The notes under the pieces: model-generated
Told to the model about the DNA's origin: nothing
Database searches by the model: none
What the model saw: the letters and a program-made list of their open reading frames with translations, nothing else
Program-made: the position numbers and the translations under genes
DNA from: an uncultured bacterium
GTDB taxonomy: Bacteria; Hydrothermota; Tepidihabitantia; Tepidihabitantales; Tepidihabitantaceae
DNA length: 44,326 nucleotides
NCBI GenBank assembly: GCA_964592755.1
Contig: CAZQFS010000004.1
Location: 1-44,326, forward strand
Direction of reading: 5' to 3'
Shown: piece by piece, positions 5,117-19,269 of the stretch
How positions within the stretch are numbered: position 1 is the first letter of the stretch
Layout: each line of letters opens with the position of its first letter

Positions 5117-6031
5117 TCAGAGAGTTCCCAGCAGGTTCTCGACCTTGCCTATCGCTGCGACCTCCTTGCCTCTGAGGTCGGCAAGGATGCGGGCCTTTTC
5201 GCCCGGCTCCATCTCCTTGTCCGCGACCTTGGCGAGCAGGTCGGCGATGTCCTTGTACGCCTTGCTCAATTCCAGCGCCGGCCCGGCAATTCTGAGCATC
5301 TTCTTTGCCACCTCGGCGAAGTAGTCGGCCGCCATGGCGCGACACTCAGACCAGACCGTCGCGTTCCACCAGTTGCCATGTGAGGAGCCGTGCCCGGCCC
5401 CGACCGCACGCGCCCAGTTGTCATAGGCCTTGAGCCCGATGCCGTACCGCTCGAAGCTGTGCTGCTCTGGATGCTTGAACAGGTCAATCGCATAGGCCAG
5501 GCTGTCCCGCACAGCAGTAGCGTCGTCCCTGGGCTCGAACTTCTTGAAGGTCCAGAAGGTCGCGTGGCACTCGTCCTTGAACTCCTGCCACGTACCGAAG
5601 GTCAGGGTCGCGGGCGGGAACCCGCCGCAGCAGTCGCCCCACGGCTGGGCGGTGAAGAACTGCTTGTCGTCATAGCCGTAGATGACCTGGTTCTCCATGT
5701 TGCCCAAGGCACAGGGCTGGCCTTTGTCCAGGTGCGCCCTGAGCTTCGCCTCGACTTCGGCCCGCGCCTCGGAACTCGAACTACCCTCGAAGAACCCGAG
5801 GTCAATCATGTCAAGGCCCAGGTTTCGCACGAGCTTGTAGAACGGCTCGTACTTCCAGCAATAGGGCCCGCTTGGACAGAGTTCGTCGTGGATGTTGATA
5901 AGGAACGCGTGGCCTGAACCGCCGAAGGTCCAGGCATCGCTCGTGTCCAGCTTGTAGAAATCCAGCACCGCCTTCACCACGCCCATCATGGTCGTGTTCA
6001 GGCCCGACTGCTTCAGGTTCTCAATCTTCAT
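5117..6031 (-). CDS. Hypothetical protein, 304 aa (no confident family; distant BtrH_N/DUF4872-like impression only)
   Basis: ATG preceded by AAGGAG (rc of 6036-6045). Clean, non-repetitive globular composition with no antisense competitor of known function. The C-terminal ~70 aa are predicted helical (AEVAKKMLRIAGPALELSKAYKDIADLLAKV). Confidence 0.7.
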   Translation of the reverse strand: MKIENLKQSGLNTTMMGVVKAVLDFYKLDTSDAWTFGGSGHAFLINIHDELCPSGPYCWKYEPFYKLVRNLGLDMIDLGFFEGSSSSEARAEVEAKLRAHLDKGQPCALGNMENQVIYGYDDKQFFTAQPWGDCCGGFPPATLTFGTWQEFKDECHATFWTFKKFEPRDDATAVRDSLAYAIDLFKHPEQHSFERYGIGLKAYDNWARAVGAGHGSSHGNWWNATVWSECRAMAADYFAEVAKKMLRIAGPALELSKAYKDIADLLAKVADKEMEPGEKARILADLRGKEVAAIGKVENLLGTL

Positions 6032-6252: not shown

Positions 6253-7542
6253 CTATTTCTTGTAGTGCTTGCCCAGTGCCTCGATTCGATCCGGTGACAG
6301 GAAGATGCAATCGAGAAGGTCCGCTCTTGCAGCCGCAACGTCCTCGGCGTGGTTCCTGCACTTCGGGGCGCCGCACAGCCCGCAGTTAAGCATGGGCAGG
6401 GTTCTCAGTAACTCCTCCGCCCGCTTCCTTCTCGCCACCCGCTCCCTGAGGTCGATGGCTTCTCCCTCGGTCTGGCGGGGCTTGAGCGAGCCCCTCAGGG
6501 AAAAATCCTCCAGGGCATAGCGCCGGTTCACTTCCTGCTCGAACTCGGGGCCCGGGCCGGGCATGCTGGCCATCAAGTGGAGGTTCTTGCTGCGCGCTGC
6601 ATACAGATTCTCGACCGTCAGGTTGCCCCCGATGCAGCCTCCCTGGCAGGCATTGCACTCCAAAAACTCGATGTTGCGGATTCGCCCCTTCTCGACATCG
6701 TTGAAGACCTTCATGATGTCCGAAAGACCGGTCAGGGGGAGGTAGTGTTCGCGCGCGAGCGCGGGTACTTCCTCTTCCGCAGCTCCCCAATGCAGCAACC
6801 CGACCGCGGTCACGAGGTCCTTCGGGGCCTCACCCGGTTTCGTGGCCCTGCGCATCTTCGTGAGCAGACCATTGTATATCTCTGATATGCCCACGGCGCC
6901 GTCGAGGTAGCTCTTCACTTCTTCCGCCGGCTGAAGAATGGAAATGGCCTTGGCCTGGCAGGGGGTAATGTAGATTGCCGCAATCTCGTCCGGGGCGAGA
7001 CCCAGTTCCCGGGAATACCGGCGCTTCAGCTCGCGGGCGGCGATTTCGCGTGGCGCCTCCAGGGGGATGACGTGATCAACCAGCGAGGGATACGCGACCT
7101 GGATCAGTCGGACGACCACCGGGCAGGAGCTCGATATCAACGGGAACGGTCCGGGCCATCTCTTGACGAAGTCCGTGATGGCCCGGTCAATGAGCGCGAC
7201 GTCGACGCCATACTCCCACACCGCGTCGAAGCCGATCTCCATGAGGGCTCTGCCGACATCGGCGGGAGTGTCTCCCATTCCGAATTGCATGAAGAGCGCC
7301 GGCGAGGCGACCGCCACCTTGAACTTGAACCGGTTCAGTTCGGCGAACTTGATGGTCGTCGCGGAAATGGCGCCCAGCTCACACACGCCGAGACAAGACC
7401 CGCAGTCGATGCACAACTCGGAGATTAGGCGCGCTTTGCCGTTCTTCACCCTGATGGCCTGGGTCGGGCAGGCGCGCATGCACGACATCCTGCCGTCGCA
7501 CTTGTCCGGGTCAATGCGAAAGCCGTGCCTCAGCTCAGCCAT
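6253..7542 (-). CDS. [FeFe]-hydrogenase-like protein, putative sensory type. N-terminal 2x[4Fe-4S] ferredoxin, H-cluster-like domain and a C-terminal CxxCxxxxC 'FeS' domain.
   Basis: H-cluster motif equivalents are present but altered: L1 PLISSSCP (canonical TSCCP; the first Cys is Ser), L2 ITPCQAK (canonical MPCxxKxxE; no Glu), L3 EFLECNACQGGCIGG. N-terminus has CDGRMSCMRACP and CIDCGSCLGVC. C-terminus has LPMLNCGLCGAPKC....C. Overlaps the upstream HATPase gene by 8 nt. Confidence 0.85.
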   Translation of the reverse strand: MAELRHGFRIDPDKCDGRMSCMRACPTQAIRVKNGKARLISELCIDCGSCLGVCELGAISATTIKFAELNRFKFKVAVASPALFMQFGMGDTPADVGRALMEIGFDAVWEYGVDVALIDRAITDFVKRWPGPFPLISSSCPVVVRLIQVAYPSLVDHVIPLEAPREIAARELKRRYSRELGLAPDEIAAIYITPCQAKAISILQPAEEVKSYLDGAVGISEIYNGLLTKMRRATKPGEAPKDLVTAVGLLHWGAAEEEVPALAREHYLPLTGLSDIMKVFNDVEKGRIRNIEFLECNACQGGCIGGNLTVENLYAARSKNLHLMASMPGPGPEFEQEVNRRYALEDFSLRGSLKPRQTEGEAIDLRERVARRKRAEELLRTLPMLNCGLCGAPKCRNHAEDVAAARADLLDCIFLSPDRIEALGKHYKK

Positions 7543-7972
7543 TGGCGTCCAGCCTTATTCTGGCGAAGACCCGCGTACCCTTGCCCACCTCGGATTCGAT
7601 GCGGAATTCGTCGGAGTTCTTCTTCATGTTCGGCAGGCCCATGCCGAATCCGAACCCCAGCTCGCGCATCTCGTCCGAGGCCGTGGAATAACCCTCCTGC
7701 AGCGCCTGGTTGATGTCGGGAATCCCCGGGCCTTCGTCGTCGATTTCCAGGCTGATATCCTCGTCGGTCAGCGTCAGCGTCAGCGTTCCCCGCTGGGCGT
7801 ACATGACGACGTTCATCTCTCCCTCGTACGCGACGATTACCGTGCGCCGGGTGTTCACGGCGTCAATGCACAGGTCGCGGAGCATGACTTTGATTTCACT
7901 CGAGACCTCGCCGGCCTTTTCGAAGTTCCTCCCTTGGATCCCGAAGCTCTCTCGAAGCAGTTCCGCGGGCAT
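7535..7972 (-). CDS. HATPase_c-only protein (RsbW/anti-sigma-factor-type Ser/Thr kinase-like)
   Basis: Start moved to the ATG at 7972 (MPAELLRESF...), 5 nt after the DRTGG stop. The ORF-track start at 8020 would overlap that gene. Bergerat-fold motifs EGEMNVV, DDGPGIPD and GFGFGMGLPN. Confidence 0.8.
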   Translation of the reverse strand: MPAELLRESFGIQGRNFEKAGEVSSEIKVMLRDLCIDAVNTRRTVIVAYEGEMNVVMYAQRGTLTLTLTDEDISLEIDDEGPGIPDINQALQEGYSTASDEMRELGFGFGMGLPNMKKNSDEFRIESEVGKGTRVFARIRLDANG

Positions 7973-7977
7973 CGGCG

Positions 7978-8322
7978 CTAGGACACTCCTTTGAGCCCCT
8001 TGCCGTAAAGCACGCCGCAAATGTCGAACATGCCCATCCCGGTCACGAGCACCGGAATGTGCTTCTCGCGGGCGAAATCGACGACTTTCTGGTCGGGCAG
8101 CTTGCCCCGGCAGTAGATGACGGCGCTGACCCCGGCGATGTCGGCCGTCCGTATCGACTGGATGTTGGTCAGCCCAGTAACCATCAGTTCCTTCGACCTG
8201 GCAAAGGCCAGTATCTCACTCATGCCGTCCGAGGCAACAACCTGGGTGACGTCGACCTGCAGGTCGTCCCCCTGGGTCAGGACTTCACACTGGAGCAGGT
8301 CCCGGATTTCGCCGAGCGTCAT
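7978..8322 (-). CDS. DRTGG-domain protein
   Basis: 114 aa. LMVTGLTN...AVIYCRGKLPDQKVVDFAREKHIPVLVT matches the DRTGG-domain pattern as I recall it. A paralogue lies at 15490-15816 in the same operon. Confidence 0.72.
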   Translation of the reverse strand: MTLGEIRDLLQCEVLTQGDDLQVDVTQVVASDGMSEILAFARSKELMVTGLTNIQSIRTADIAGVSAVIYCRGKLPDQKVVDFAREKHIPVLVTGMGMFDICGVLYGKGLKGVS

Positions 8323-8324
8323 GC

Positions 8325-9740
8325 TTACTCCCCATTCGTGAGGTGCTTGTGCATGGCGGCCGCGGCGACCCTGCCGTCGCCCATGGCGCTGATTACCGTC
8401 GCCGCTCCGCGAACGATGTCGCCGCCGGCCCAGATTCTCGGCCGGGATGACCTGGCCGTCTCCGGGTCGGTGACAATGCCGCCCTTCTTGTTGATCTCGA
8501 GCCCCGGCGTGGTCAGGGGGATGAGCGGATTGGGGCTGTTGCCAATGGCTATGACCACGGCATCAAAGGGAACGCGGAAGTTGGAGCCTTCGACCGGAAC
8601 CGGCTTGCGCCGGCCCGAGGCATCGGGTTCGCCGAGTTCCATCTTCTGGCACTCAACCTCCTTGACCCAGCCGTTCTCGTCGCCGACCAGGCGCAGCGGC
8701 AACGTCAGGAGGTCGAAGATGACGCCTTCCTCCTCGGCGTTCTCCGCCTCCTCTACCCGGGCGGGCAGCTCGGCCCGGCTGCGGCGGTAGACGAGGTGCA
8801 CTTCTGCCGCGCCCAGGCGAACGGCGGTGCGGGCCGAGTCCATGGCCACGTTGCCGCCACCAACCACGGCCACGCGGCATGGCCTCTTCACCGGCGTCTG
8901 GTATTCGGGGAAGCGGAACCCTTTCATCAGGTTCACGCGCGTGAGGTACTCGTTGGCCGAATAGACGCCGTTCAGGTTCTCGCCCGGTATTCCCATGAAC
9001 CAAGGCAGGCCGGCGCCGGAGCCAACGAAGAGCGCATCGAACTCCTCAAGCAGCTCGTCCACGGTCCTCGTCTTGCCCACAATGAAGTCAGTGATGATGC
9101 TCACGCCAAGACTCTTGACGTACTCCACCTCACGGCGGACGATCGCCTTGGGCAGCCGGAACTCCGGAATCCCGTACGCGAGCACGCCGCCGCATTCGTG
9201 CAGCGCCTCGAAGATGGTCACCTCGTGGCCGCGGATGACGAGGTCGTTGGCCACGGTGATTCCGGAGGGACCGGAACCGACAACGGCAACCTTCTTCCCG
9301 GTCCTGGGAGCCATGTCCGGGACCTCGGTCTTTCCTTCCGCGGCTTCCCAGTCCGCCAGGAATCGCTCGAGCCGGCCGATGGCGACCGACGCGCCCTTCT
9401 TGCCCAGGATGCACATCTTCTCGCACTGCTCTTCCTGGGGGCAGACCCGGCCGCAGATGGCCGGCAGGGCGTTCGTCTCCTTGATTTTCCTCACGCCCGC
9501 GCCGAACTCGCGCGCGACGATAAGCTTGATGAAGCCGGGGATGTCGATGCCGACCGGACAGCCCTGCCGGCACAAGGGCTTCTTGCACTGCAGGCAGCGG
9601 GAGGCCTCGGTCAGGGCCGTCTCGACCGGGTAGCCGAGCGCGACCTCGTCGAAGTTCCGAACCCGCTCCAAAGGGTCCTGCTTCGGCATGTGCTGCCGTT
9701 CGACCTTCGGCGTTGGCTTCTGCTGCCGCTCCTCAACCAT
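8325..9740 (-). CDS. NfnB / SudA / GltD-like NAD(P)H-dependent FAD oxidoreductase, large subunit
   Basis: 471 aa. N-terminal Cys clusters CLQCKKPLCRQGCP and CGRVCPQEEQCEKMC. Dinucleotide fold KKVAVVGSGPSGITVANDL, second fold VAVVGGGNVAMD, C-terminal GGDIVRGAATVI. Confidence 0.9.
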   Translation of the reverse strand: MVEERQQKPTPKVERQHMPKQDPLERVRNFDEVALGYPVETALTEASRCLQCKKPLCRQGCPVGIDIPGFIKLIVAREFGAGVRKIKETNALPAICGRVCPQEEQCEKMCILGKKGASVAIGRLERFLADWEAAEGKTEVPDMAPRTGKKVAVVGSGPSGITVANDLVIRGHEVTIFEALHECGGVLAYGIPEFRLPKAIVRREVEYVKSLGVSIITDFIVGKTRTVDELLEEFDALFVGSGAGLPWFMGIPGENLNGVYSANEYLTRVNLMKGFRFPEYQTPVKRPCRVAVVGGGNVAMDSARTAVRLGAAEVHLVYRRSRAELPARVEEAENAEEEGVIFDLLTLPLRLVGDENGWVKEVECQKMELGEPDASGRRKPVPVEGSNFRVPFDAVVIAIGNSPNPLIPLTTPGLEINKKGGIVTDPETARSSRPRIWAGGDIVRGAATVISAMGDGRVAAAAMHKHLTNGE

Positions 9741-9755
9741 TGCTCGTACTCCGCA

Positions 9756-10589
9756 TCAGAAGTGCGACTGGCAGCTCGACCGGCGCAGCGGGTCGACCTC
9801 CTCGGGATTGTAGCTCCTGCGCCGCGCGAGGAATTCCTGCCAGTCGATCTCGTGCCCGTCGAAATCCGGGCCGTCGACACAGGCGAACTTGGTCTTGCCT
9901 CCGACCGACAGGCGGCAGACGCCGCACATGCCCGTGCCGTCGATCATGATCGGGTTCATGTTGACAATCGTCTTCCAGCCCAGAGGCCTGGTGGCCATGG
10001 AGACGCGCATCATCTGGAACGTGCAGCCGTTGACGACGACAAGCTGGGGCGCGATTCCTGCCCGCTGCACCAGCTCGGGCAGCTTGTCGACGTGCCCTTT
10101 CTGGCCCTTGGTGCCGTCCCGCGTGATGACGAAGAGCTTGTCCGACACGCCGGCCAGCCGGTCTTCCCAGTACAGCAGGAAGGAACTACGCGCCTCCACC
10201 AGCGTGTAGACCTTGTTGCCTGCCTCCTTGAGCGCCCGGGCGATGGGGTAGATGGAGCCGATCCCATAGCATCCGCCGACGCAGAGGACCGTACCGACAT
10301 TCTCGATTACGGTCTCTTTGCCGAGCGGCCCCGCGAACGTCGGAATCTCGTCGCCGGGCTTGAGACGCGCGAGCCGGGCCGTGGACCCGCCGACCTGCAT
10401 GAAGATCATAGTCACCGTGCCGGCCTCGCGGTCCCAATCGGCGACGGAGAGCGGGACACGCTCGCCGTTCTGGTCGGCCCGCACGATGACGAAGTTACCC
10501 GGCTTCACGGACCGCGCCGCCGCCGGTGCGTGCACGGTGAACTCGTGGAGGTTCGGGACGATCATCCGTCGTTCAACGACTCGGTACAC
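9756..10589 (-). CDS. NfnA / SudB-like FAD/NAD(P)-binding 2Fe-2S subunit
   Basis: 277 aa. FNR-like fold (PGNFVIVR, RVPLSV, CVGGCYGIGSIYPIA). C-terminal cluster motif GTGMCGVCRL...FACVDGP. Confidence 0.9.
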   Translation of the reverse strand: MYRVVERRMIVPNLHEFTVHAPAAARSVKPGNFVIVRADQNGERVPLSVADWDREAGTVTMIFMQVGGSTARLARLKPGDEIPTFAGPLGKETVIENVGTVLCVGGCYGIGSIYPIARALKEAGNKVYTLVEARSSFLLYWEDRLAGVSDKLFVITRDGTKGQKGHVDKLPELVQRAGIAPQLVVVNGCTFQMMRVSMATRPLGWKTIVNMNPIMIDGTGMCGVCRLSVGGKTKFACVDGPDFDGHEIDWQEFLARRRSYNPEEVDPLRRSSCQSHF

Positions 10590-10598
10590 GTACTTCCT

Positions 10599-13124
10599 CT
10601 ATGTTCTCCCGACGGGTGACCGTGAGACGTCTGCCCACGTCGGGTTCTGTTCGAGCCGGTACAGCGGCCAAAGTGCGCGGCGGTGCGCGAGCCCGCCGAA
10701 TACGAACGGCCGCGTGTAGTACACGACGCCTTTCGGGCATTCGATGTTCGACTTGGCCGGACCCGAGGCAGTGACCGCTCCATTGTCCAGCGACACGACA
10801 ATCTCATCGCCGTCCGCCAAGCCGAGGGCAGCAATGTCCTCGGGATTCATCCGGAATCCCTCTTCCAGGGCCAGCTCGGCGAGTCCTCCTACCTTCGACG
10901 AGATGTCAATGCCGCGGTGGCGGTAGCCGGCTGGCTCAGCCACCAGCAGGAAGTCGCCCTTGCCCTGGGCCGTGGTTTTGGATTCTGGATTTGGGATTTG
11001 GGATCTTGCAGCATGCGGCCTCATCCGTCGCGGCATCCGGTCAGGCCGGACCGGGAAATCGCTCACCGCCCGGTGGATATCCTCGGCGACATCCTCTCGC
11101 GTTCGATAGTCCATTCCCGAATGCTGCAGAGCTTTGGCCAGGTCAGAGAAGATCCGCCAGTCAGGGCGCATGAACCCGGCCACAACCCCTTCCGTCGGGC
11201 TCTCGATTGGGACGATCTCCTGTACCCGGCCCTCCATGTTGACGAGAGTTCCGCCGGCCTCGGCAAAGGAGGCCGCCGGCAGGAAGGCGTCGACCCTGAA
11301 AGGAGGGAGGTAGGTATCCTGGACGACTAGGAAATCGCAGTCCGGCCGATCAAGGAAAGGAACGTCGCCGACAAGGTGCAGCACCTTCGGCCGCTTCGCA
11401 CTGCCCGCGATGCCCGCGAGGCCGAGGCCTGCTCCCTTCCGGGGCGCACCGCCCGGGCCCGCTTCCGGGAAGACCCCCATCTCCAGCGCCCCTCGAGTGT
11501 TGGCGCCGAAGTACAAGGGGACTAAATTCGTGTCCGAACGGGCGGAGAGAGTCGCCAGGCTGGCGGCGAGCTCGTCGGTACTGGCGCAGTGGAAGACCTG
11601 CGGCCCGACAATCACCGTCAGGGACTTGGACGAGGAGATGATATCGCGCACCCGGGTCAGGGCTTCCACATCCACCGAGGCATGCTTCGCCACCAGTGAC
11701 GTATCGGACGGGCGACCGGCGAGGCTGTCGGCGAGGAAGCCGAGCAGCAGCGCCTCCGTGCCCGGCACGGGACGAAGCCAGTCGTCGGTATAACGGGCCA
11801 GATTGCTGTCGCGGGCATCGATGGTCACCAACCTGGCTCCCCGGTCGAGCGCCTTGCGCACCTTCGTGCCCACCACCGAGAAGTTGAAGCGGCTATCGAG
11901 CCCGACAGCCAGAATCACGTCGGCCCGGGCGATTCCGTTGATCGAAATGGGCACCGAGAAGAGCTCTGACCACAAGCCCAGTCCTCCCGCAAGTTCCATC
12001 CGCGCGGTTGAGTCGATGCCGTCCGAGCCGAGGCATTCCCGGACGAACTTCTGCGCCGCGAAGAGGCTTTCGTTCGTGAGGTCCGGCGAGACGAGCATCA
12101 GGAACTCCTCGGGGCGAATCCCCTTCAGCTCGCCGGCCACTTTCTCCAGGACCTCCTCCCACGAGACCTGCCGGAAATAGTCGCCCTTCTGGAGCATCGG
12201 CCACTTCGCCCGTTCGAAGTGGTGAGTCACTTCCGGCAGACAGAATCTGCCCTTGACGCACAACTGCCCGTCGTTGACCTCCGGGTCCAAGTTAGCCCTG
12301 GCCTTGGACAATCGGCCGTCTTTGTGGTCCAGCTCGAGCTGGCAGCCGACCGGGCAGAACGGGCATGTCGATGTGCGCGAGCCGTCCGGCTTGCCGTCCC
12401 ACTTTGATGCCTTGTCGGCCAGGGCGCCGGTCGGACAGACATCCACGCAGGCGCCGCAGAACTCGCAACCGGCTCCGATGTGGCTGCGACCGAAGGCCGG
12501 GCTGACCTTGGCTCGCGGCCCGCGATAGCTGAAGGCCAGCACGCCGGTCCCCCGGACTTCCTGACACATCCGCACGCACCGGCCGCAGAGGATGCAGATG
12601 TTGTAGTCACGGTCGTAGAAGGGGTCGTCGTGCTCGGGTTCGTAGCCGTGGTAGTAAATCGGGTAGTCGATCTCGGTCAGGCCGATCTTCTCCACCAGGG
12701 TCTGCAGCTCGCACTGGCCGTCATTCGGGCAGAAACGGCAGCCGGTCGTCACGCCGGTCTTGCGAATCGTCCCCTGATAGTCCCGGCACTCGTCCTTCTC
12801 GCCACAGACGAGGCAGCTCGACGGATGCTCGCTCAAGATGAGCTTCAGGATCTCGGCCCGCAGTTCCCTGAGCGTCGCCGTGTCGGTCAGTACCTTCATC
12901 CCTTCCCGGGCGACCGTGCTGCATGAAAGGGGGTAGCCGCGCATCCCTTCAATCTCCACCATGCACAGCCGGCAGCCGCCGAAGGGAGAGAGGTCCTTGT
13001 GGGAACAAAGGGAAGGAATGTAGACCCCGGCGAGCTCGGCGGCGCGGTGGACGGTCACGCCCTCGGGGAAGGACACGTTCCGGTGGTTCACTTCCATTGT
13101 CAGCGTGCGTGGCTCTTGAACCAT
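10599..13124 (-). CDS. NuoG/HydA-N-terminus-like multi-FeS subunit with a cofactor-less (vestigial) molybdopterin-oxidoreductase domain
   Basis: 841 aa. 2Fe-2S site (C40, C51, C54, C68). HPSSCLVCGEKDEC plus a second CRFCPNDGQCELQ. CILCGRCVRMC, CEFCGACVDVCP, MopB cluster CPFCPVGC...LCVKGR. At the position of the formate-dehydrogenase ARV(U/C)H active site the protein reads ARMEL. Confidence 0.85.
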   Translation of the reverse strand: MVQEPRTLTMEVNHRNVSFPEGVTVHRAAELAGVYIPSLCSHKDLSPFGGCRLCMVEIEGMRGYPLSCSTVAREGMKVLTDTATLRELRAEILKLILSEHPSSCLVCGEKDECRDYQGTIRKTGVTTGCRFCPNDGQCELQTLVEKIGLTEIDYPIYYHGYEPEHDDPFYDRDYNICILCGRCVRMCQEVRGTGVLAFSYRGPRAKVSPAFGRSHIGAGCEFCGACVDVCPTGALADKASKWDGKPDGSRTSTCPFCPVGCQLELDHKDGRLSKARANLDPEVNDGQLCVKGRFCLPEVTHHFERAKWPMLQKGDYFRQVSWEEVLEKVAGELKGIRPEEFLMLVSPDLTNESLFAAQKFVRECLGSDGIDSTARMELAGGLGLWSELFSVPISINGIARADVILAVGLDSRFNFSVVGTKVRKALDRGARLVTIDARDSNLARYTDDWLRPVPGTEALLLGFLADSLAGRPSDTSLVAKHASVDVEALTRVRDIISSSKSLTVIVGPQVFHCASTDELAASLATLSARSDTNLVPLYFGANTRGALEMGVFPEAGPGGAPRKGAGLGLAGIAGSAKRPKVLHLVGDVPFLDRPDCDFLVVQDTYLPPFRVDAFLPAASFAEAGGTLVNMEGRVQEIVPIESPTEGVVAGFMRPDWRIFSDLAKALQHSGMDYRTREDVAEDIHRAVSDFPVRPDRMPRRMRPHAARSQIPNPESKTTAQGKGDFLLVAEPAGYRHRGIDISSKVGGLAELALEEGFRMNPEDIAALGLADGDEIVVSLDNGAVTASGPAKSNIECPKGVVYYTRPFVFGGLAHRRALWPLYRLEQNPTWADVSRSPVGRT
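10974..11008. repeat. Imperfect heptanucleotide tandem repeat x5 inside the NuoG-like CDS
   Basis: GGTTTTG GATTCTG GATTTGG GATTTGG GATCTTG on the plus strand. It encodes ...RSQIPNPESKT... on the minus strand. Locally AT-rich compared with its flanks. Confidence 0.7.
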
Positions 13125-13127
13125 GGC

Positions 13128-14999
13128 TTATGACTCGATGATAATGGCGTCTCCGGCGATGGCGTCGAAACGACAGACCTCATAGCAGGAGCGGCACTTG
13201 ATGCACTTGGATTGGTCGAGGTTGTGCGGCTCGGACCTAGGACCGGTGATGGCGCCGGTCGGGCACACCTTCACGCAGCGCTGGCAGCCTGTACATTTCG
13301 AGGGGACGACTCGATACACGACGAGGTTCTTGCAGGTCACGGCCGGACAGCGTTTGTCCTTGACATGAGAGATGAACTCGGGCCGGAAGTACTTGAGAGC
13401 GGAAAGCGCGGGGTTGGGGGCGGTGGTGCCCAAGCCGCAGAGCGACCCGTTCTTGACCGTCCGGCCGAGCTTCTCCAGCTTGTCCAGATCCGAGAAGTCG
13501 GCCTTGCCGTCGCATATCCGCTCGAGTATCTCCACCATGTGCCGCGTCCCGACGCGACAGGGAACGCACTTACCACACGACTCCCGTTGAGTGAAAGTCA
13601 GGAAGTACTTGGCCATGTCGACGATGCAGGTGCTGGAATCGACCACGATGAGGCCCCCGGAGCCCATGATCGCCCCGGCCTCGGCCAAGTGCTCATAGTC
13701 GATGGGCAGATCCAGGAACTCCTCCGAAAGGCACCCTCCGGAGGGCCCTCCGCTCTGGACCGCCTTGAACGGCTTCTGAGTTCCGCCGCCGATATCGTAG
13801 ATGACTTCCCGAAGGGTAGTGCCGAGCGGGACCTCGATCAACCCTGTCCGCCTGACTTTGCCGACAAGGGAGAAAGTCTTGGTCCCTCTGCTCGTTTCGG
13901 TCCCGTAACCGGCGTACCACTCCGCCCCGTTACGGAGGATGTTGGGCAGCGTGCCGAGCGTCTCGGTGTTGTTGATGATGGTGGGTCTGCCCCGGAGCCC
14001 GGAGACGGCGGGAAAGGGCGGACGCGAGCGGGGCATGCCGCGTTTCCCTTCAATCGAGGCGATGAGCGCGGTCTCCTCGCCGCACACGAATGCCCCGGCG
14101 CCTTCTTTGATCTTGATGTCGAAGCTGAAATTGGACCCAAGGATATTCTGACCGAGGAGGCCGACCTCGCGCATCTGGGCCATCGCCTTTCGGAGTCGCT
14201 TGATTGCCAGGGGATACTCCGCCCGAATGTAGACGTACCCGTGAGCGGCGCCGATGGCGTAGGCCGCGATGAGCATCCCTTCCAGGACGGCATGGGGGTC
14301 GCCCTCGATGAGGGAGCGATTCATGAATGCGCCCGGGTCACCTTCGTCGGCGTTGCAGATGAGACAGCGCTCGCCGTTCTGCTGGTCGCGGCAGGTGGCC
14401 CACTTCCGCCAGGTCGGGAAACCGGCCCCCCCGCGTCCGCGAATGCCGGCCCGTTTGACCGTATCCAGCACCTCCTGCCAGGTCATGGACAGGCACTTCT
14501 CGAACCCCCGGTAGCCGTCCCTCGCCAGGTAGTGGTCGAGGTCGTCCGGGTCAATGAGGCCGCAGTTCCGGAGCACAATCCTGACTTGCGGTTTCAGCAT
14601 CGGCAGGTCGAAGAAGCGGGGGACTCCATCAAGCTCGCCCTCCCCGAAGTGTCCGGCGAGGTGATACTTCGGTATCTCGCCCACCTCGAAGAACCCCTTG
14701 AGGATTGGCACCACGTCCTTCGCCGCGACGTTGGAGTAACTGATTCGCGGCCGGCCCGGCATCTGGACGTCCATCAGGGGCTCCAGATAGCAGGGGCCGA
14801 TGCACCCGACCGGGACAATCCTGGCGTCGAGCTGGTGCTGCTTCAGGTACTCCTCGACGGCGCTCTGCGTGTCCGCCGCGCCAGCGGCCAGCCCGCACGA
14901 CCCGGCGCCGATGTAGATGAACGGGACAGGGCTCTCGCGGAGAGCGTCCCACCTGGCCTGCGCCTGCCGGCGGCGCCCGTCAATCGCTGCGGTCTTCAT
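13128..14999 (-). CDS. NuoF/HydB-like NADH- and FMN-binding subunit with N-terminal thioredoxin-like domain and C-terminal 2x[4Fe-4S] ferredoxin
   Basis: 623 aa. GRGGAGFPTWRKW, EGDPGAF, N3 cluster ESCGKCVPCRVGT...C. C-terminal CTGCQRCVKVCP and CIKCRSCYEVC. Confidence 0.92.
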   Translation of the reverse strand: MKTAAIDGRRRQAQARWDALRESPVPFIYIGAGSCGLAAGAADTQSAVEEYLKQHQLDARIVPVGCIGPCYLEPLMDVQMPGRPRISYSNVAAKDVVPILKGFFEVGEIPKYHLAGHFGEGELDGVPRFFDLPMLKPQVRIVLRNCGLIDPDDLDHYLARDGYRGFEKCLSMTWQEVLDTVKRAGIRGRGGAGFPTWRKWATCRDQQNGERCLICNADEGDPGAFMNRSLIEGDPHAVLEGMLIAAYAIGAAHGYVYIRAEYPLAIKRLRKAMAQMREVGLLGQNILGSNFSFDIKIKEGAGAFVCGEETALIASIEGKRGMPRSRPPFPAVSGLRGRPTIINNTETLGTLPNILRNGAEWYAGYGTETSRGTKTFSLVGKVRRTGLIEVPLGTTLREVIYDIGGGTQKPFKAVQSGGPSGGCLSEEFLDLPIDYEHLAEAGAIMGSGGLIVVDSSTCIVDMAKYFLTFTQRESCGKCVPCRVGTRHMVEILERICDGKADFSDLDKLEKLGRTVKNGSLCGLGTTAPNPALSALKYFRPEFISHVKDKRCPAVTCKNLVVYRVVPSKCTGCQRCVKVCPTGAITGPRSEPHNLDQSKCIKCRSCYEVCRFDAIAGDAIIIES

Positions 15000-15441
15000 C
15001 GAGTAGCTGTTGGACCTTCAGGACCGACATCTGGCTGTGGAACTTGTCGTCGAAGGCGACCACGGGAGCCAGGGCACAGCAGCCCAGACAGGCAACACGT
15101 TCGAGGTCGTACTTCCCGTCGGCGGTCGTCTCGCCGGTCTTTATGTTCAGGCGCGCTTGAGTCATGGCGAGAATCTCCTCCCCGCCCTTCACGTGGCAGG
15201 CGGTGCCGAGACAGACCTTGACATGGTGTCGACCCGGAGGGTGGAACCGGAACTGGGCATAGAAGGTCGCGACCCCGAAGATCTCATTCTCGGATATCTT
15301 CATCCATCGGGAGATGCCACGAATGGCATCCGGACGCAGGTAGCCGTCCTGGGCCTGCAATCGCTGCAGAACGGGGATAAGATCCTCTCGCTCGCCCTTG
15401 AATTCCTGCCGAATCGCCGAAATGCCGTCGCCAGAAGTCAA
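14980..15441 (-). CDS. NuoE/HydC-like 2Fe-2S subunit
   Basis: 153 aa. VCLGTACHVKG ... CLGCCALAPVV (Cx4C...Cx3C). Overlaps the NuoF-like start by 20 nt. Confidence 0.9.
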   Translation of the reverse strand: MTSGDGISAIRQEFKGEREDLIPVLQRLQAQDGYLRPDAIRGISRWMKISENEIFGVATFYAQFRFHPPGRHHVKVCLGTACHVKGGEEILAMTQARLNIKTGETTADGKYDLERVACLGCCALAPVVAFDDKFHSQMSVLKVQQLLDEDRSD

Positions 15442-15489: not shown

Positions 15490-15816
15490 TCATCCGATCT
15501 TGAGATCGCAGAGTCTCTTGGCCAGGCTCCAAGTGTCGCCGTCGTAGCCAAGCAGTCTTATTCCGGCTTTGCTGGCCAGTGCAACCACGTCGGCGGCGGG
15601 GACCCTGTTGCGGGAGAACACCACCGCCGCCACGTCGACGAGATTGGCGGCGGCGATCAGGTTCTTGTGGGTTTGCAGGGTTATCAGCAAATGCCCCTCT
15701 TTGATGCCGACGATGTCGCTCACCATGTCGGAGATGTAGACTCCCATGATCTCTTTGTCGGCGCCCTCGTTGAAGGTCCTGAGGCCCGTCTTATTGACCA
15801 GTTCGGATACTTTCAT
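15490..15816 (-). CDS. DRTGG-domain protein (second copy)
   Basis: I used the internal ATG at 15816 (MKVSELVNKTG...). The 119 upstream codons of the track ORF overlap the preceding gene and are Arg-rich junk. HLLITLQTHKNLIAAANLVDVAAVVFSRNRVPAADVVALASKAGIRLL parallels the protein at 7978-8322. Confidence 0.7.
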   Translation of the reverse strand: MKVSELVNKTGLRTFNEGADKEIMGVYISDMVSDIVGIKEGHLLITLQTHKNLIAAANLVDVAAVVFSRNRVPAADVVALASKAGIRLLGYDGDTWSLAKRLCDLKIG

Positions 15817-15842
15817 CGCGTCCCTTTCTTCTTTGACAGCTC

Positions 15843-16373
15843 TCAATACAGATCCGTCAAACCGAAGTCCGCCAGCACGATTCCCTGACACGTATCGACG
15901 GACTTGCGCAAGCGGCAGGGAACGACGACGATCTTCTTGGCCGGATCCTTTGTCCCGTGACTGAAATACTCGTTCAACGCGCGGAGGCTCTCGGCGGGAA
16001 TGCACCCATCGGGGGAATGAGAGGTGTTCGCGCACAGGGCCACATACGCCCAGGTCTTCTGACCCGGTCCGTTCGTTCCGGCGGCATAGACGCCGCAGTT
16101 CGGATCGCACTGCGTGCAGAGCATAAGAGCCATGACTTCCTTCAGGGGGATCTCGGCGGAGCACTTCTCGCATTTCAGGTCGAACTGCGAGGCCTGGTAG
16201 TGCGCCAGGTGGCTCCAGAAATGCTCTCCCTCGTGGTAGTCGTCAATCGGCGCGACCGCCTCCTGTGAAAAGAAGGAAATCCTGTTCCGGCAGTGAAAAC
16301 AGCCTTCGATGACCAGATATCCCGGGCGAATATTGGCCATGGCCCATTGGTGATGACAAGCGGCTTTGCTCAT
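15843..16373 (-). CDS. Cys/His-rich hypothetical protein (12 Cys; zinc-ribbon-like CxxC pairs), first gene of the redox operon
   Basis: 176 aa. CFHC...CEKC, CTQCDPNC and further single Cys, with many His. GGGAG lies 6 nt upstream of the ATG. A locally AT-rich stretch (about 16386-16425) upstream is promoter-like. Confidence 0.65.
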   Translation of the reverse strand: MSKAACHHQWAMANIRPGYLVIEGCFHCRNRISFFSQEAVAPIDDYHEGEHFWSHLAHYQASQFDLKCEKCSAEIPLKEVMALMLCTQCDPNCGVYAAGTNGPGQKTWAYVALCANTSHSPDGCIPAESLRALNEYFSHGTKDPAKKIVVVPCRLRKSVDTCQGIVLADFGLTDLY

Positions 16374-16611
16374 AGGTACTCCCGCGTCTGGTCTAAGAAA
16401 AGCACCATATCATAGGGATTCTAGTAGCCGCGGGATGGCGTGTCAAATGGACGGGCCGTGCGCCCCACCGGACAGGCCAAGTCGAGGGTCGTGTCCGGCA
16501 GCAACGCAATACGCCGGGAGTAGCGATGCAGGCGCACCCGGAACGCTCGGCAATCAGGGGTGCTCGCGACTCGTTGCTTGACGCGGCGGTGTGCTGCGGG
16601 CACAATTGGGC

Positions 16612-18396: not shown

Positions 18397-19269
18397 ATGA
18401 TGTGTGAGTTCTGTACGAAGCACGGCGAGGGCCGGAAGTGGTACCTGGAGATGAAGAACTACTCGGCCGAACTGGCCAGCGCCCGGCTGTCCGGTCGAGA
18501 ACTGAAGCTGGCCGGCGTGAACACGCGGGCCGAGTGGCTGCAGCGCTTCGTGCGCAGCTTTGTCGTGCCGGCGGCCACGGGCACGCGCAGCCGCGAAGAC
18601 TGGGGCCCGCAGGAAACCGACGCCGACCCGGCCACCCTTGCCGACGACCAGGCCGTGCACTTCGGCCAGGTCCTGCCCATGAAGGACGTCGAGGCGGTGC
18701 TCGACCTGGGCACGTCGATAACGCGGATTCCCTGCGGGTGCCGGTTCCTGCTGACCGGCAAGACCAACGCCCGCTACTGCTTCGGCCTGGGAATGGACCA
18801 GTGGAATGTCATGGGCAGATTCCCGGACGCATCAGCCTCACTCGAAGTCCTGGACCGCGAAGAGGCCCGGCGCCTCATCCGTAAGTTCGACGAGGACGGC
18901 CTGGTCCACAGCATCTGGACCGGCATGACTCCCTACGTCGTCGGCCTGTGCAACTGCGACCGCGACTGCGGCGCGTACCGCGGGTACATCATGAACCGGG
19001 GCCGGCCGAACTTCTTCCGGGCCGAGTATGTCTGCGAGGTTGACCTCGACCTCTGCACCGGCTGCAAGTCGTGTATGAGCCAGTGCCAGTTCGGCGCTCA
19101 GTTCTACTCGCACCTCTCCTCCAGGGTGTACATCGACCCGACGCGTTGCTTCGGGTGCGGAGTCTGCATGGCCGCCTGCCCGGCCGGCGCCATCAAACTG
19201 CTGCCGAGGCAGGAACACCCCAAGGCCAGGGACCTCTGGCTCGATACGCCACCGCCGGCAGACGTCTGA
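18397..19269 (+). CDS. 4Fe-4S dicluster-domain protein of unknown function
   Basis: GGAGG lies upstream; the start is either ATG 18397 or ATG 18400. N-terminal MMCEFCTKHGEGRKWYLEMKNY. C-terminal CTGCKSCMSQC and CFGCGVCMAACP. Confidence 0.8.
   Translation: MMCEFCTKHGEGRKWYLEMKNYSAELASARLSGRELKLAGVNTRAEWLQRFVRSFVVPAATGTRSREDWGPQETDADPATLADDQAVHFGQVLPMKDVEAVLDLGTSITRIPCGCRFLLTGKTNARYCFGLGMDQWNVMGRFPDASASLEVLDREEARRLIRKFDEDGLVHSIWTGMTPYVVGLCNCDRDCGAYRGYIMNRGRPNFFRAEYVCEVDLDLCTGCKSCMSQCQFGAQFYSHLSSRVYIDPTRCFGCGVCMAACPAGAIKLLPRQEHPKARDLWLDTPPPADV

Follow-up and report, generated by a model that had tools for sequence, protein, structure and literature searches.

In the Stn/NfnABC enzymes (Nfn-Bfu, Type 1 Bfu), such as S. 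ovata StnABC and the NfnABC of C. saccharolyticus and T. sibiricus, a NuoE/NuoF-like core is combined with an A subunit that pairs a [2Fe-2S] cluster and several [4Fe-4S] clusters with a pterin-free FDH/NuoG-like domain, and the third substrate is reached through a GltD/NfnL-type NADPH module inserted in the A subunit. According to the Stn literature, Stn lacks an NfnA homologue and Nfn lacks a HydBC homologue. The characterised NfnAB (NfnSL) enzymes of T. maritima and P. furiosus (NfnI) are stand-alone heterodimers. In Type 2/3 Bfu enzymes (NiFe-HydABCSL, Wor-BfuABCSL), BfuA is the route by which extra subunits on BfuABC deliver the third substrate. According to the T. sibiricus Nfn-Bfu structure paper, NfnSL has no relationship to the known SL subunits, and the 2022 catalogue of Bfu enzymes lists no type with NfnSL. 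For Bam-Bfu, a second bifurcating module (HdrA) has been proposed beside Bfu, which makes it the nearest precedent for two centres in one complex. FdsABG of R. capsulatus and C. necator, which does not bifurcate, has a NuoE, NuoF and NuoG/FDH-like layout, and SfrAB joins a Mo-less NuoG/FDH-like SfrA to a GltD-type NADPH subunit, SfrB, in line with the comparison in Kremp et al.

The window analysed here, a 44,326-nt stretch of DNA from an uncultured bacterium, contains a ten-gene minus-strand operon, in which five core genes are preceded by a Cys-rich and a DRTGG-like ORF and followed by three genes, the last of which encodes an [FeFe]-hydrogenase-like protein:

16418..16446, minus strand: sigma-70-like promoter candidate (TTGACA-17-TAGAAT), a consensus match only (11/12), 45 nt upstream of the operon's first ORF
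15843..16373, minus strand: Cys-rich 176-aa protein without a Pfam family, heading the cluster
15490..15813, minus strand: DRTGG-like protein, 107 aa (DRTGG match at E = 3e-4, which misses the Pfam cut-off)
14980..15441, minus strand: BfuC/NuoE-like [2Fe-2S] subunit (C1 cluster), 153 aa (PF01257, 2e-46)
13128..14999, minus strand: BfuB/NuoF-like subunit, 623 aa (Pfam domains and PDB matches)
10599..13124, minus strand: BfuA-like/NuoG-like scaffold, 841 aa (Pfam/NCBIfam domains)
9756..10589, minus strand: NfnA/NfnS-like protein, 277 aa (NF004862, 339 bits)
8325..9740, minus strand: NfnB/NfnL-like protein, 471 aa (TIGR01316, 574 bits, above cut-off)
7978..8322, minus strand: DRTGG-domain protein, presumed regulatory (PF07085, 2e-7)
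7535..8020, minus strand: SpoIIAB-like HATPase of the anti-sigma/Ser-kinase type, presumed regulatory (PF02518, PF13581)
6253..7542, minus strand: [FeFe]-hydrogenase-like protein, 429 aa (Fe_hyd_lg_C 1e-26, PF04060)

The five minus-strand core genes claimed by the first-pass annotation are all present in the ORF list, with the junctions it gave (a 20-nt NuoE/NuoF overlap, then 3, 9 and 15 nt), and each motif it quoted (CLGTAC...CLGCC, GRGGAGFPTWRKW, ESCGKCVPCR, GMCGVC and GSGPSG) was found in the translations. Its range of 9756-15441, by contrast, spans only four of the genes and leaves NfnB outside, at 8325-9740. The Pfam and NCBIfam domain matches are far above chance (2Fe-2S_thioredx 2e-46, Complex1_51K 4e-47, Fer4_20 3e-42).

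The NuoE/NuoF-like pair shares its domain and Cys pattern with the Stn/NfnABC core. All five Cys of the NuoE-like protein are kept in 47/47 orthologs, and the NuoF-like protein, whose Cys ligands are likewise kept, has the FMN/NAD(H) site, the B1 [4Fe-4S] site and a C-terminal 2x[4Fe-4S] domain (B3/B4), which FdsB lacks. Its top PDB match, aligned end to end, is the NfnB subunit of the C. saccharolyticus Nfn-Bfu (9bov_B, 761 bits), followed, also end to end, by StnB (8oh5_B, 726 bits), 9n5u_B (722 bits) and 7t2r_B (721 bits), although such scores barely distinguish Nfn-Bfu, at 761 bits, from NiFe-Bfu, at 721 bits. The Bfu-type core proposed for this subunit is thus borne out by a full Bfu cofactor set and by Nfn-Bfu/Stn B subunits as nearest structures.

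The scaffold contains the clusters ascribed to it earlier as a HydA-N-terminus core, that is, a [2Fe-2S], a His-ligated [4Fe-4S] and a 2x[4Fe-4S] site, but it is more than that core, since a Molybdop_Fe4S4-type site (the fifth [4Fe-4S] site) and a C-terminal, formate-dehydrogenase-like molybdopterin-oxidoreductase domain of ~590 aa (PF00384, 93.8 bits) are also present. This domain, as well as an additional conserved Cys triplet (C113/C129/C132), had been overlooked. The FeS cysteines are all retained in 45/45 orthologs, whereas the Cys/Sec-His pair that ligates Mo in FdsA, which binds bis-MGD, is replaced by non-conserved residues in the same 45 proteins ('CARVCHSPTG' in FdsA against 'TARM-ELAGG' here); none of them has a Cys at the Mo-ligand position. 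The GxNPxxxxP pterin motif is degenerated in all 45 as well, and both losses extend to the fusion proteins described below. The claim that no formate dehydrogenase catalytic subunit is encoded therefore survives, in that an FDH-like domain is present but its ligand pair is lost. The scaffold is thus left with no catalytic cofactor site of its own, and the Bfu core alone would consequently be without a third substrate. An AF2 model of the scaffold (pLDDT 73.6) has FdsA-type FDH alpha subunits and NuoG as top fold matches. The P0001 gene caller places the scaffold start 9 codons downstream of the start used here.

The description of NfnA and NfnB as a textbook pair also holds. NfnA has the FAD/NAD(H) fold and an Asp/Cys3 [2Fe-2S] site (DGTGMCGVCR), and matches the small subunit of P. 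furiosus NfnI (5jca_S, 249 bits) and T. maritima NfnA (4ylf_A, 221 bits). NfnB, which in the alignment looks ~60% identical to its T. maritima counterpart (4ylf_B, 552 bits; 5jca_L, 518 bits), aligns at all cluster Cys and retains two [4Fe-4S] sites, FAD and NADP(H) sites, and Arg195, which corresponds to the bifurcation-linked Arg. Both proteins are full-length like the characterised NfnAB, and each cluster ligand and the Arg beside the b-FAD are conserved. What differs is the setting, in which the pair is always encoded beside, or fused to, a scaffold of the NuoG/FDH-like kind together with a Bfu BC core. Stn, in contrast, lacks NfnA and carries its NfnL-type module within the A subunit, while the window encodes a separate canonical NfnB; SfrAB has neither NfnA nor a NuoE/NuoF core; and in Type 2/3 Bfu enzymes, which also add subunits to BfuABC, the added subunits are not NfnSL as they are here.

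The five-gene set recurs in ~60 uncultured species. We surveyed 63 loci with a scaffold ortholog of at least 45% identity, all from metagenome-assembled genomes and covering at least eight bacterial phyla, the sources being Aminicenantes, WOR-3, Krumholzibacteria, Planctomycetota/Phycisphaerae/Brocadiia, Actinomycetota/Thermoleophilia, Anaerolineae, Acidobacteriota and Desulfocapsaceae. NfnA and NfnB directly follow the scaffold gene in 50/50 loci with enough downstream DNA (four of these, where the scaffold match was fragmented, were read by eye), mostly with gaps of 0-60 nt (scaffold-NfnA) and 10-40 nt (NfnA-NfnB). NuoE and NuoF are present in 51/51 informative loci but are sometimes relocated, in 11 cases to a position behind the [FeFe]-hydrogenase-like, probable sensor gene. 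The scaffold-NfnA-NfnB triad remains together where NuoE-NuoF move; in the three relocated loci that were tabulated, NuoE-NuoF have diverged (41-57% identity to the copies in the window) and the triad is 65-81% identical. The co-conservation of the NuoEFG-like and NfnAB-like genes, which the first-pass annotation had put forward for survey, is thus evident across phyla. One locus, L052, has a second, divergent NfnAB copy adjoining the cluster, which suggests that the cluster copy is specialised. No further catalytic gene was found to be conserved in the cluster across the surveyed loci.

Furthermore, hundreds of related proteins, found in Bacteria as well as Asgard archaea, unite scaffold and NfnA in a single polypeptide. 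Loki-, Promethe-, Hel- and Thorarchaeota have full-length scaffold::NfnA fusions of 1030-1100 aa, with the operon order NuoE - NuoF - scaffold::NfnA - NfnB. A short version of ~830 aa, which accounts for all of the best 120 clusters and comes from Hydrogenedentota, Planctomycetota and Dehalococcoidia, lies in the order NuoF::GltD - short scaffold::NfnA - NfnB. These are sister families, 29-43% identical in the scaffold part, and do not occur among the window's own orthologs. The predicted fold of one natural fusion (pLDDT 83.9, pTM 0.82) has a C-terminal module similar to P. furiosus NfnI-S (TM 0.88). All three architectures share a duplicated motif, H-x3-C-x2-C-x5-C-x15-C-x2-C-x5-C, found in 132 of the best 150 representatives. 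Additional Cys at the His-cluster motif are a feature in common with Stn/NfnABC. In the alignment to 9bov_A, the duplicated motif lies where the GltD/NfnL domain is inserted in Nfn-Bfu/Stn A subunits: the insert is 25 residues with three Cys in the window scaffold, and ~460 residues of GltD in Stn.

We infer from these genomes of uncultured organisms that the five genes probably encode one soluble Bfu (HydABC-type) complex for NAD(H), NADP(H) and ferredoxin, in which a separately encoded NfnAB would serve as third-substrate module in place of the hydrogenase, the formate dehydrogenase or the fused GltD of other Bfu enzymes. NADP(H) would react at the b-FAD of NfnB, and the two [4Fe-4S] clusters of NfnB would pass electrons to the Mo-less scaffold's chain of clusters rather than to free ferredoxin. 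This chain would lead to the NuoF/NuoE-like pair and its FMN/B1/C1 bifurcation site, where NAD(H) would react at the FMN and the C-terminal B3/B4 clusters would serve ferredoxin, and NfnA would be the [2Fe-2S]/FAD branch bearing a further NAD(P)H site. The net reaction would be a reversible electron exchange between NADH, NADPH and ferredoxin, i.e. that of a transhydrogenase. With two potential bifurcation centres, the stoichiometry may differ from that of Nfn or Stn. The first-pass annotation recognised no described complex of this kind, and this arrangement was likewise not found in the 2022 Bfu catalogue, nor in the papers on the structures of Stn and NfnABC; if true, it would be an enzyme not described before, in which two different bifurcating machines are coupled.

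Since an obvious docking extension is missing from both NfnA and NfnB, the pair could act on its own, and the operon could encode two enzymes for redox balancing, namely a stand-alone NfnAB and a separate NuoE/NuoF/scaffold enzyme that has its partner encoded elsewhere or is a plain NADH:ferredoxin oxidoreductase. Full-length NfnB and NfnA do lie near characterised NfnAB (552 and 249 bits), separate but functionally linked enzymes are frequently co-transcribed, and Schut et al. give the same caveat for CODH-Bfu clusters. We nevertheless consider two enzymes unlikely, because the adjacency is unbroken across phyla even where NuoE-NuoF are relocated or replaced, because relatives carry scaffold and NfnA on one chain, and because the scaffold lacks a catalytic cofactor site that could supply the Bfu core with a third substrate; the specialisation suggested by L052 points the same way.

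Alternatively, the complex may form but its NfnAB-like pair may take non-Nfn substrates, the third substrate not being NADP(H). By our own calculation, two bifurcation sites of this kind in strict series have odd energetics at E' of -280 (NAD), -380 (NADP) and -500 mV (ferredoxin): on such a reading, a very-low-potential acceptor is not evident and NADPH formation is poorly driven. There is a precedent in P. furiosus NfnII/Xfn, which matches as well (NfnB against 5vj7_A, 484 bits; NfnA against 5vj7_B, 181 bits), and GltD-type modules serve many acceptors (AegA, YgfK and others in NCBIfam). However, bona fide NfnAB from T. maritima and P. furiosus (NfnI) outscore Xfn, the NADPH-type GSGPSG/Rossmann motifs are intact, as are both [4Fe-4S] sites and the Arg, and the cluster is devoid of any additional conserved catalytic gene, all of which makes a substrate change improbable.

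The first-pass annotation had also stated that the enzyme has no hydrogenase catalytic subunit, overlooking the last gene of the operon; as a Fe_hyd_lg_C protein with all H-cluster cysteines, its product required that statement to be tested. This 429-aa protein has two N-terminal [4Fe-4S] sites, an H-domain and, at its C-terminus, a 4-Cys 'FeS' domain. All its 16 Cys are conserved in 39/39 orthologs, and its gene is present in 35/39 loci. Docked on the scaffold, as the separate HytA is in the C. autoethanogenum Fdh/FeFe-Bfu, it would make the complex an NAD(P)H/ferredoxin-dependent hydrogenase; among Type 2 Bfu enzymes, some have their H-cluster subunit encoded separately. We regard this as very improbable. 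Although P2 and P3 retain their cysteines, P1 reads SSSCP, so that the proton-relay Cys is replaced by Ser; the scores are low (66-72 bits only against catalytic hydrogenases in PDB; TIGR04105, 105 bits against a cut-off of 450); and no hydEFG genes were found within the window. The gene always accompanies the DRTGG and anti-sigma-type HATPase genes, with all three divergently transcribed in actinobacterial loci, and is missing from Desulfocapsaceae L061 and actinobacterial L037, L040 and L048, where the five core genes are kept, as well as from both Asgard operons examined. Bfu clusters are known to include putative sensory [FeFe]-hydrogenase genes, and the protein is probably an H2/redox sensor, not a catalytic hydrogenase.

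An NAD-dependent, FdsABG-like formate dehydrogenase, suggested by automatic annotation ('formate dehydrogenase alpha subunit' or 'molybdopterin-dependent oxidoreductase YjgC'), by the scaffold's top PDB hits in both sequence and fold, which are FdsA-type alpha subunits, and by its PF00384 and PF04879 domains, is hardly credible given the lost Mo ligands and pterin motif, a TIGR01591 (Fdh-alpha) score of 177 bits against a cut-off of 666, and the homologous domains of Stn and C. saccharolyticus NfnA, which are experimentally pterin-free and formate-inactive.

If the five core genes do form one Bfu complex with NfnAB, the DRTGG, HATPase and H-cluster proteins encoded downstream would be a regulatory trio rather than catalytic subunits. 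The DRTGG gene (7978-8322) begins 2 nt past NfnB and is syntenic at most loci, and the HATPase gene (7535-8020), whose TIGR01925 match is weak, overlaps both neighbours. At the operon's opposite end, the Cys-rich ORF (15843-16373) has no significant Pfam match but is present in most orthologous loci, with ten Cys kept in 36-37 of 37 orthologs. The DRTGG-like protein uses an internal start within a 227-aa ORF (15490-16173), and its C-terminal part is conserved at related loci.

Tightly packed minus-strand ORFs span positions 16373 to 6253 (ORF translation of the window), and five of them encode a NuoE/NuoF/NuoG-like trio followed by an NfnA/NfnB-like pair:

16446-16418, minus strand: sigma-70-like promoter TTGACA-17-TAGAAT, by sequence match
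15843-16373, minus strand: Cys-rich ORF of 176 aa, first after the promoter, with no Pfam or NCBIfam family
14980-15441, minus strand: NuoE-like protein, 153 aa
13128-14999, minus strand: NuoF-like protein, 623 aa
10599-13124, minus strand: NuoG-like scaffold, 841 aa
9756-10589, minus strand: NfnA-like protein, 277 aa
8325-9740, minus strand: NfnB-like protein, 471 aa

The first-pass annotation had described an operon of five genes, and its observation was confirmed in part. The five genes are real and their junctions (a 20-nt overlap, then 3, 9 and 15 nt) are exactly as claimed in our ORF calls; likewise, every motif it quoted is found in the translations. However, the range it gave, 9756-15441, leaves out NfnB at 8325-9740, and the transcription unit is larger, with ORFs at both ends. 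At its head, the Cys-rich ORF is followed by a small DRTGG-like ORF. On the 3' side of NfnB lie, in this order, genes for a DRTGG protein, a SpoIIAB-like HATPase and a 429-aa Fe_hyd_lg_C protein, with a gap of 2 nt between the NfnB and DRTGG genes and overlaps at the two following junctions. The genes on either side of the operon are unrelated housekeeping or regulatory genes. A terminator scan of the window returned matches no more frequent than in shuffled sequence and so carries no information on where the operon ends.

Domain assignments of the five proteins are unambiguous (Pfam, NCBIfam). According to Schut et al. (2022), BfuB, the NuoF-like subunit of the HydABC-type bifurcating (Bfu) family, has an FMN/NADH domain, an SLBB domain, the B1 cluster and C-terminal B3/B4 clusters, and non-bifurcating homologs lack B3/B4. 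The NuoF-like protein carries the sequence features of BfuB in that definition (PF01512, PF10531, PF10589), with two CxxCxxCxxxC motifs at residues 569-609 as the C-terminal 2x[4Fe-4S] site. It aligns end to end with the Nfn-Bfu/Stn B subunits 9bov_B, 8oh5_B and 9n5u_B (761, 726 and 722 bits), and NiFe-HydB scores barely lower (721 bits); PDB bit scores of 761 versus 721 weakly favour a placement near the Nfn-Bfu clade. The NuoE-like protein, whose gene overlaps that of BfuB, has the thioredoxin-like [2Fe-2S] C1 site expected of BfuC (PF01257, 2e-46), and the scaffold supplies the [2Fe-2S] and 4Fe-4S ferredoxin domains that define BfuA in the same cluster. NfnB aligns to T. maritima NfnB (4ylf_B) with 552 bits and has FAD and NADPH folds and both [4Fe-4S] motifs, with conserved cluster cysteines at residues 49-110; Arg195, within GIPEFRLPK, is by alignment the predicted counterpart of the arginine at the flavin N5. 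NfnA has an FNR-like FAD/NAD(H) fold (249 bits to P. furiosus NfnI-S, 5jca_S, over residues 1-262) and the Asp(Cys)3 [2Fe-2S] motif DGTGMCGVCR...C. Both NfnA and NfnB look fully competent and, judged from sequence, the five-gene set matches the sequence definitions of both the Bfu family and NfnAB.

The third protein had been taken for a HydA-N-terminus-type core. It is actually of the FdsA/NuoG type: it contains one [2Fe-2S] and one His-ligated [4Fe-4S] site, a pair of ferredoxin-type [4Fe-4S] sites and a Molybdop_Fe4S4 site (PF13510, PF10588, PF22117, PF04879), together with a full molybdopterin-oxidoreductase-like domain. Its top PDB sequence matches are alpha subunits of NAD-dependent formate dehydrogenases, after which rank three A subunits: 9bov_A (C. 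saccharolyticus NfnABC), 7t2r_A (NiFe-HydABCSL hydrogenase) and 8oh5_C (Stn). An AF2 model (pLDDT 73.6, near 90 in the FDH-like domain) gave fold matches in agreement with the sequence matches, and the FeS-binding loops, including an extra Cys insert, were modelled at low pLDDT.

A reading of the scaffold as a Mo/W-bis-PGD formate dehydrogenase was rejected, both the Mo ligand pair and the pterin motif being lost. Opposite CARVCHSPTG of R. capsulatus-type FdsA it reads TARM-ELAGG, so that the C-H of FdsA faces a gap and E-L. Among 45 orthologs, the positions of the Mo-ligand Cys and of the His hold M/L/A/D/R and E/S/A/Y/L, with Cys at neither, and the pterin-contacting GxNPxxxxP has degenerated to GLDSRFxFS. 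Family scores agree, at 177 bits for TIGR01591 (cut-off 666) and 26.0 for PF01568 (cut-off 26.8). The earlier claim that no FDH catalytic subunit is present thus holds, by way of the lost Mo ligand in a domain which that annotation had missed. Homologous domains in Stn and in C. saccharolyticus NfnA are pterin-free by experiment, and Stn does not oxidize formate.

The FeS sites of the same protein are strictly kept: all 19 Cys/His ligands of its five clusters are invariant in the 45 orthologs. Three more cysteines, C113, C129 and C132, are also invariant, within a 25-residue stretch of strong conservation that repeats the CxxCx5C pattern found in the His-cluster motif (window 12710-12826, residues 100-138, with invariant TIRKxGVTTGCRFCPND). 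This duplicated motif is common to 132 of the best 150 family representatives. In an alignment to 9bov_A, the insert occupies exactly the place at which Nfn-Bfu A subunits carry a ~450-residue NfnL/GltD insertion.

The closest analogues of the gene set are Stn/NfnABC, stand-alone NfnAB, the ABCSL-type Bfu enzymes and Bam-Bfu, which has two bifurcating modules. Geobacter SfrAB, with a Mo-less FDH-like and a GltD-like protein, is a further candidate analogue. The A subunit of Stn/Nfn-Bfu enzymes is about 960-1180 aa long with an inserted GltD/NfnL domain, whereas the window scaffold has 841 aa and neither Pyr_redox nor Fer4_20, and residues 123-567 of 9bov_A have no counterpart in it. Furthermore, Stn has no NfnA, whereas in the window an NfnA gene follows the scaffold gene after 9 nt. 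The window set thus departs from Stn in two defining features and from formate dehydrogenases in two.

The literature was covered by full-text searches and by targeted reading of the 2022 Bfu catalogue, structure papers on Stn and on the C. saccharolyticus and T. sibiricus enzymes, an Nfn distribution review, and genome papers on Hydrogenedentota, Asgard archaea, aquifers and Chloroflexi. The catalogue lists types for H2, formate, NADP (fused), F420, CO, pyruvate, aldehyde, aryl-CoA, quinone and H2O2 as well as 17 unassigned clades, and no type containing NfnSL (NfnAB). The Stn paper describes Stn as having no NfnA homologue and Nfn as having no HydBC homologue, and the T. sibiricus paper describes NfnSL as unrelated to the SL subunits that known Bfu enzymes carry, and Thermococcaceae as carrying either NfnABC or NfnSL. 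In this literature, NfnSL and Bfu-type NfnABC/Stn are treated as unrelated, alternative answers to one problem, of which organisms typically have one. No cluster of NuoEFG-like genes with NfnAB was described in this literature, from which most subscription journals were absent. Some such clusters may already stand in published Bfu trees, unassigned or labelled 'Fdh'. We infer that the window encodes a Bfu enzyme with NfnSL as extra subunits, previously undescribed in the literature searched; the type would be widespread among uncultured Bacteria and, as a fused version, among Asgard archaea.

The synteny survey proposed in the first-pass annotation bore out the co-conservation of the NuoEFG-like and NfnAB-like genes. 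With one genome per species and a scaffold ortholog at 45-87% identity, it yielded 63 loci, all from MAGs, of Aminicenantes, WOR-3, Krumholzibacteria, Planctomycetota/Phycisphaerae/Brocadiia, Actinomycetota/Thermoleophilia, Anaerolineae, Acidobacteriota and Desulfocapsaceae. No cultured host was found, all close homologs being MAG or metagenome sequences. The scaffold gene is followed by NfnA and NfnB in 50/50 loci with sufficient downstream sequence; 46 were scored by script, and the remaining four, from long-read MAGs, have fragmented scaffold matches, with NfnA beginning where the scaffold is expected to end. The gaps are mostly 0-60 nt between scaffold and NfnA and 10-40 nt between NfnA and NfnB. 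Each of the 51 informative loci also has NuoE and NuoF, although in 11 (L005, L007, L008, L017, L019, L021, L022, L025, L034, L056 and L059) they stand behind the hydrogenase-like gene rather than ahead of the scaffold. In the three of these tabulated (L007, L017, L021), the relocated NuoE-NuoF are 41-57% identical to those of the window, whereas scaffold, NfnA and NfnB are 65-81% identical. The triad is therefore the stable unit, with a Bfu BC pair always nearby, a pattern that fits module exchange of the BC core. The inventory of modules and its conservation are thereby shown, and the genomic context argues for an NfnAB that would be associated with the scaffold rather than a stand-alone heterodimer.

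An Acidobacteriota MAG (L052, 17159-19316) has a second NfnAB pair directly after the cluster, with 42% and 54% identity to that of the window. The presence of this divergent pair means that the cluster-associated copy may be specialised.

Gene fusions in relatives tie NfnA to the scaffold. Among the best 150 scaffold-family representatives (50% identity), four have a C-terminal NfnA fusion, three of them full-length at 1023-1080 aa, and a search with one full-length fusion returned dozens of proteins of 1030-1100 aa, the named ones from Loki-, Promethe-, Hel- and Thorarchaeota. Four aligned Asgard fusions lack the Mo ligand and have the duplicated Cys motif. Two operons have the order NuoE, NuoF with ferredoxin domain, scaffold::NfnA and NfnB, which is the module set of the window with one fusion:

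L080, 4670-13569: Lokiarchaeota MAG
L081, 4707-15585: JGI metagenome contig

One natural fusion was modelled at pLDDT 83.9 and pTM 0.82, and P. furiosus NfnI-S matches the fold of its C-terminal module with a TM of 0.88. The pTM is above expectation for independently placed modules, a soft argument that the two modules may be placed jointly. This fusion in relatives is the strongest evidence at hand for placing scaffold and NfnA in a single complex. An apparent fusion of 1118 aa in L005 was a gene-calling artefact, with a TAA stop between the two genes. A glutamate dehydrogenase gene lies shortly downstream in both L080 and L081, and L081 has an FdhD-like gene nearby as well; this hints at a link of the fused operons to amino-acid catabolism.

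Other relatives rearrange the modules further. Two full-length Hydrogenedentota loci (L064, L067) encode NuoE, a NuoF::GltD-like fusion (1036 and 1043 aa), a short scaffold::NfnA fusion (864 or 838 aa) and NfnB. The best 120 clusters matching the short fusion are all ~830 aa and align along nearly the whole query, with scaffold and NfnA domains; they come from Hydrogenedentota, Planctomycetota and Dehalococcoidia, and two were checked in gene context. At L064 (6855-14024), L067, L078 and L079, the GltD-like FAD module on NuoF replaces the B3/B4 ferredoxin domain. Such a set would hold up to four nicotinamide sites, with no obvious ferredoxin domain on BfuB. Phycisphaerae loci L033 (970-8950) and L054 are hybrids, with NuoF::GltD (1059 aa) and separate full-length scaffold (870 aa), NfnA and NfnB.

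Past the gene anatomy, what can be said of function is inference from genomes. The five proteins would form one complex, in which NADP(H) would react at NfnB and the clusters of NfnB would connect to the scaffold chain feeding the FMN/B1/C1 site; NAD(H) would react at the FMN and ferredoxin at B3/B4, and NfnA would add a further NAD(P)H site on a branch made up of [2Fe-2S] and FAD. In one version the system would be a split Stn, with NfnB mainly an NADPH entry module and an overall Nfn-type reaction. Alternatively, two bifurcation centres would operate in series, the b-FAD of NfnB and the Bfu FMN/B1/C1 flavobicluster being wired through the Mo-less scaffold into a geared transhydrogenase, as an ancient and widespread module; we consider this rather unlikely. 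If it were so, the stoichiometry would be unlike those of Nfn and Stn, e.g. 4 NADPH <-> 3 NADH + 2 low-potential electrons, and the redox module would be common to many uncultured bacterial phyla and Asgard archaea. With the E' values in Schut et al. (2022) (Table 1; NAD -280, NADP -380, Fd -500 mV), our own arithmetic puts the two electrons released from 4 NADPH -> 3 NADH at about -680 mV, well below ordinary ferredoxin, and the NADPH formed in the reverse reaction at only about -335 mV. Since neither direction is obviously physiological, we commit to no stoichiometry. The original interpretation, a candidate five-subunit bifurcating enzyme, is partly supported, namely in the co-conservation of its genes and the absence of a prior description.

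An enzyme that combines the two machineries would make a new Bfu type. Such an enzyme, if real, would naturally test whether the wiring of two bifurcation sites is feasible, and would give the 'vestigial' FDH-like branch of BfuA subunits a role. Anoxic soils, peat, lake sediments and aquifers harbour the family in abundance (Aminicenantes, Planctomycetota, peat Actinomycetota), and the fused version, being widespread in Asgard archaea, bears on redox balancing in poorly understood lineages of ecological and evolutionary importance. The scaffold is routinely misnamed in annotation: public names of its homologs (P0002-P0120, P0514) include 'formate dehydrogenase alpha subunit', 'YjgC' and 'molybdopterin-dependent oxidoreductase', and the Ca. 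Lokiarchaeum ossiferum homolog is even named 'periplasmic nitrate reductase'. Such annotations are likely to produce wrong formate or nitrate calls in metabolic reconstructions of MAGs. The Mo-ligand loss described here covers the window scaffold, its 45 orthologs and the four aligned Asgard fusions.

Catalytic group A [FeFe]-hydrogenases are marked by the H-cluster motifs P1 (TSCCP), P2 (MPCxxK) and P3 (ExMxCxxGCxxG), the proton-relay Cys included. The 429-aa H-cluster protein (6253-7542) retains all cluster-ligating cysteines, and its P1 motif is SSSCP, the proton-relay Cys being replaced by Ser. Its score against TIGR02512 is 94 bits (cut-off 406), far below the cut-offs of catalytic families, and the window contains no hydEFG genes. 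The H-cluster gene is always accompanied by genes for DRTGG and an anti-sigma-type HATPase, and the trio is divergently transcribed in actinobacterial loci. Four bacterial loci (L037, L040, L048, L061) lack the H-cluster gene but retain the core genes, and both Asgard operons examined lack it too. Putative sensory [FeFe]-hydrogenase genes are known alongside Bfu clusters. We read the protein as a probable regulator, its sequence fitting a sensor, and regard a catalytic function as very improbable. The trio of DRTGG protein, SpoIIAB-like HATPase and H-cluster protein (6253-8322, minus strand) accompanies a Bfu operon without a hydrogenase, and this suggests that a transhydrogenase-like enzyme is under the control of H2 or redox sensing.

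Ten cysteines of the 176-aa protein at the head of the operon are kept by 36-37 of 37 orthologs, and the protein may be an assembly factor or a small subunit that binds metal. Immediately past the operon, the minus strand carries a gene for a sensor kinase (GAF-HisKA-HATPase, 3282-4613) and an ORF of 304 aa that matches no family (5117-6031). About 2 kb upstream, a plus-strand gene (18397-19269) encodes a 290-aa protein with a Cys-rich N-terminus and a C-terminal 2x[4Fe-4S] ferredoxin domain, a possible redox partner.
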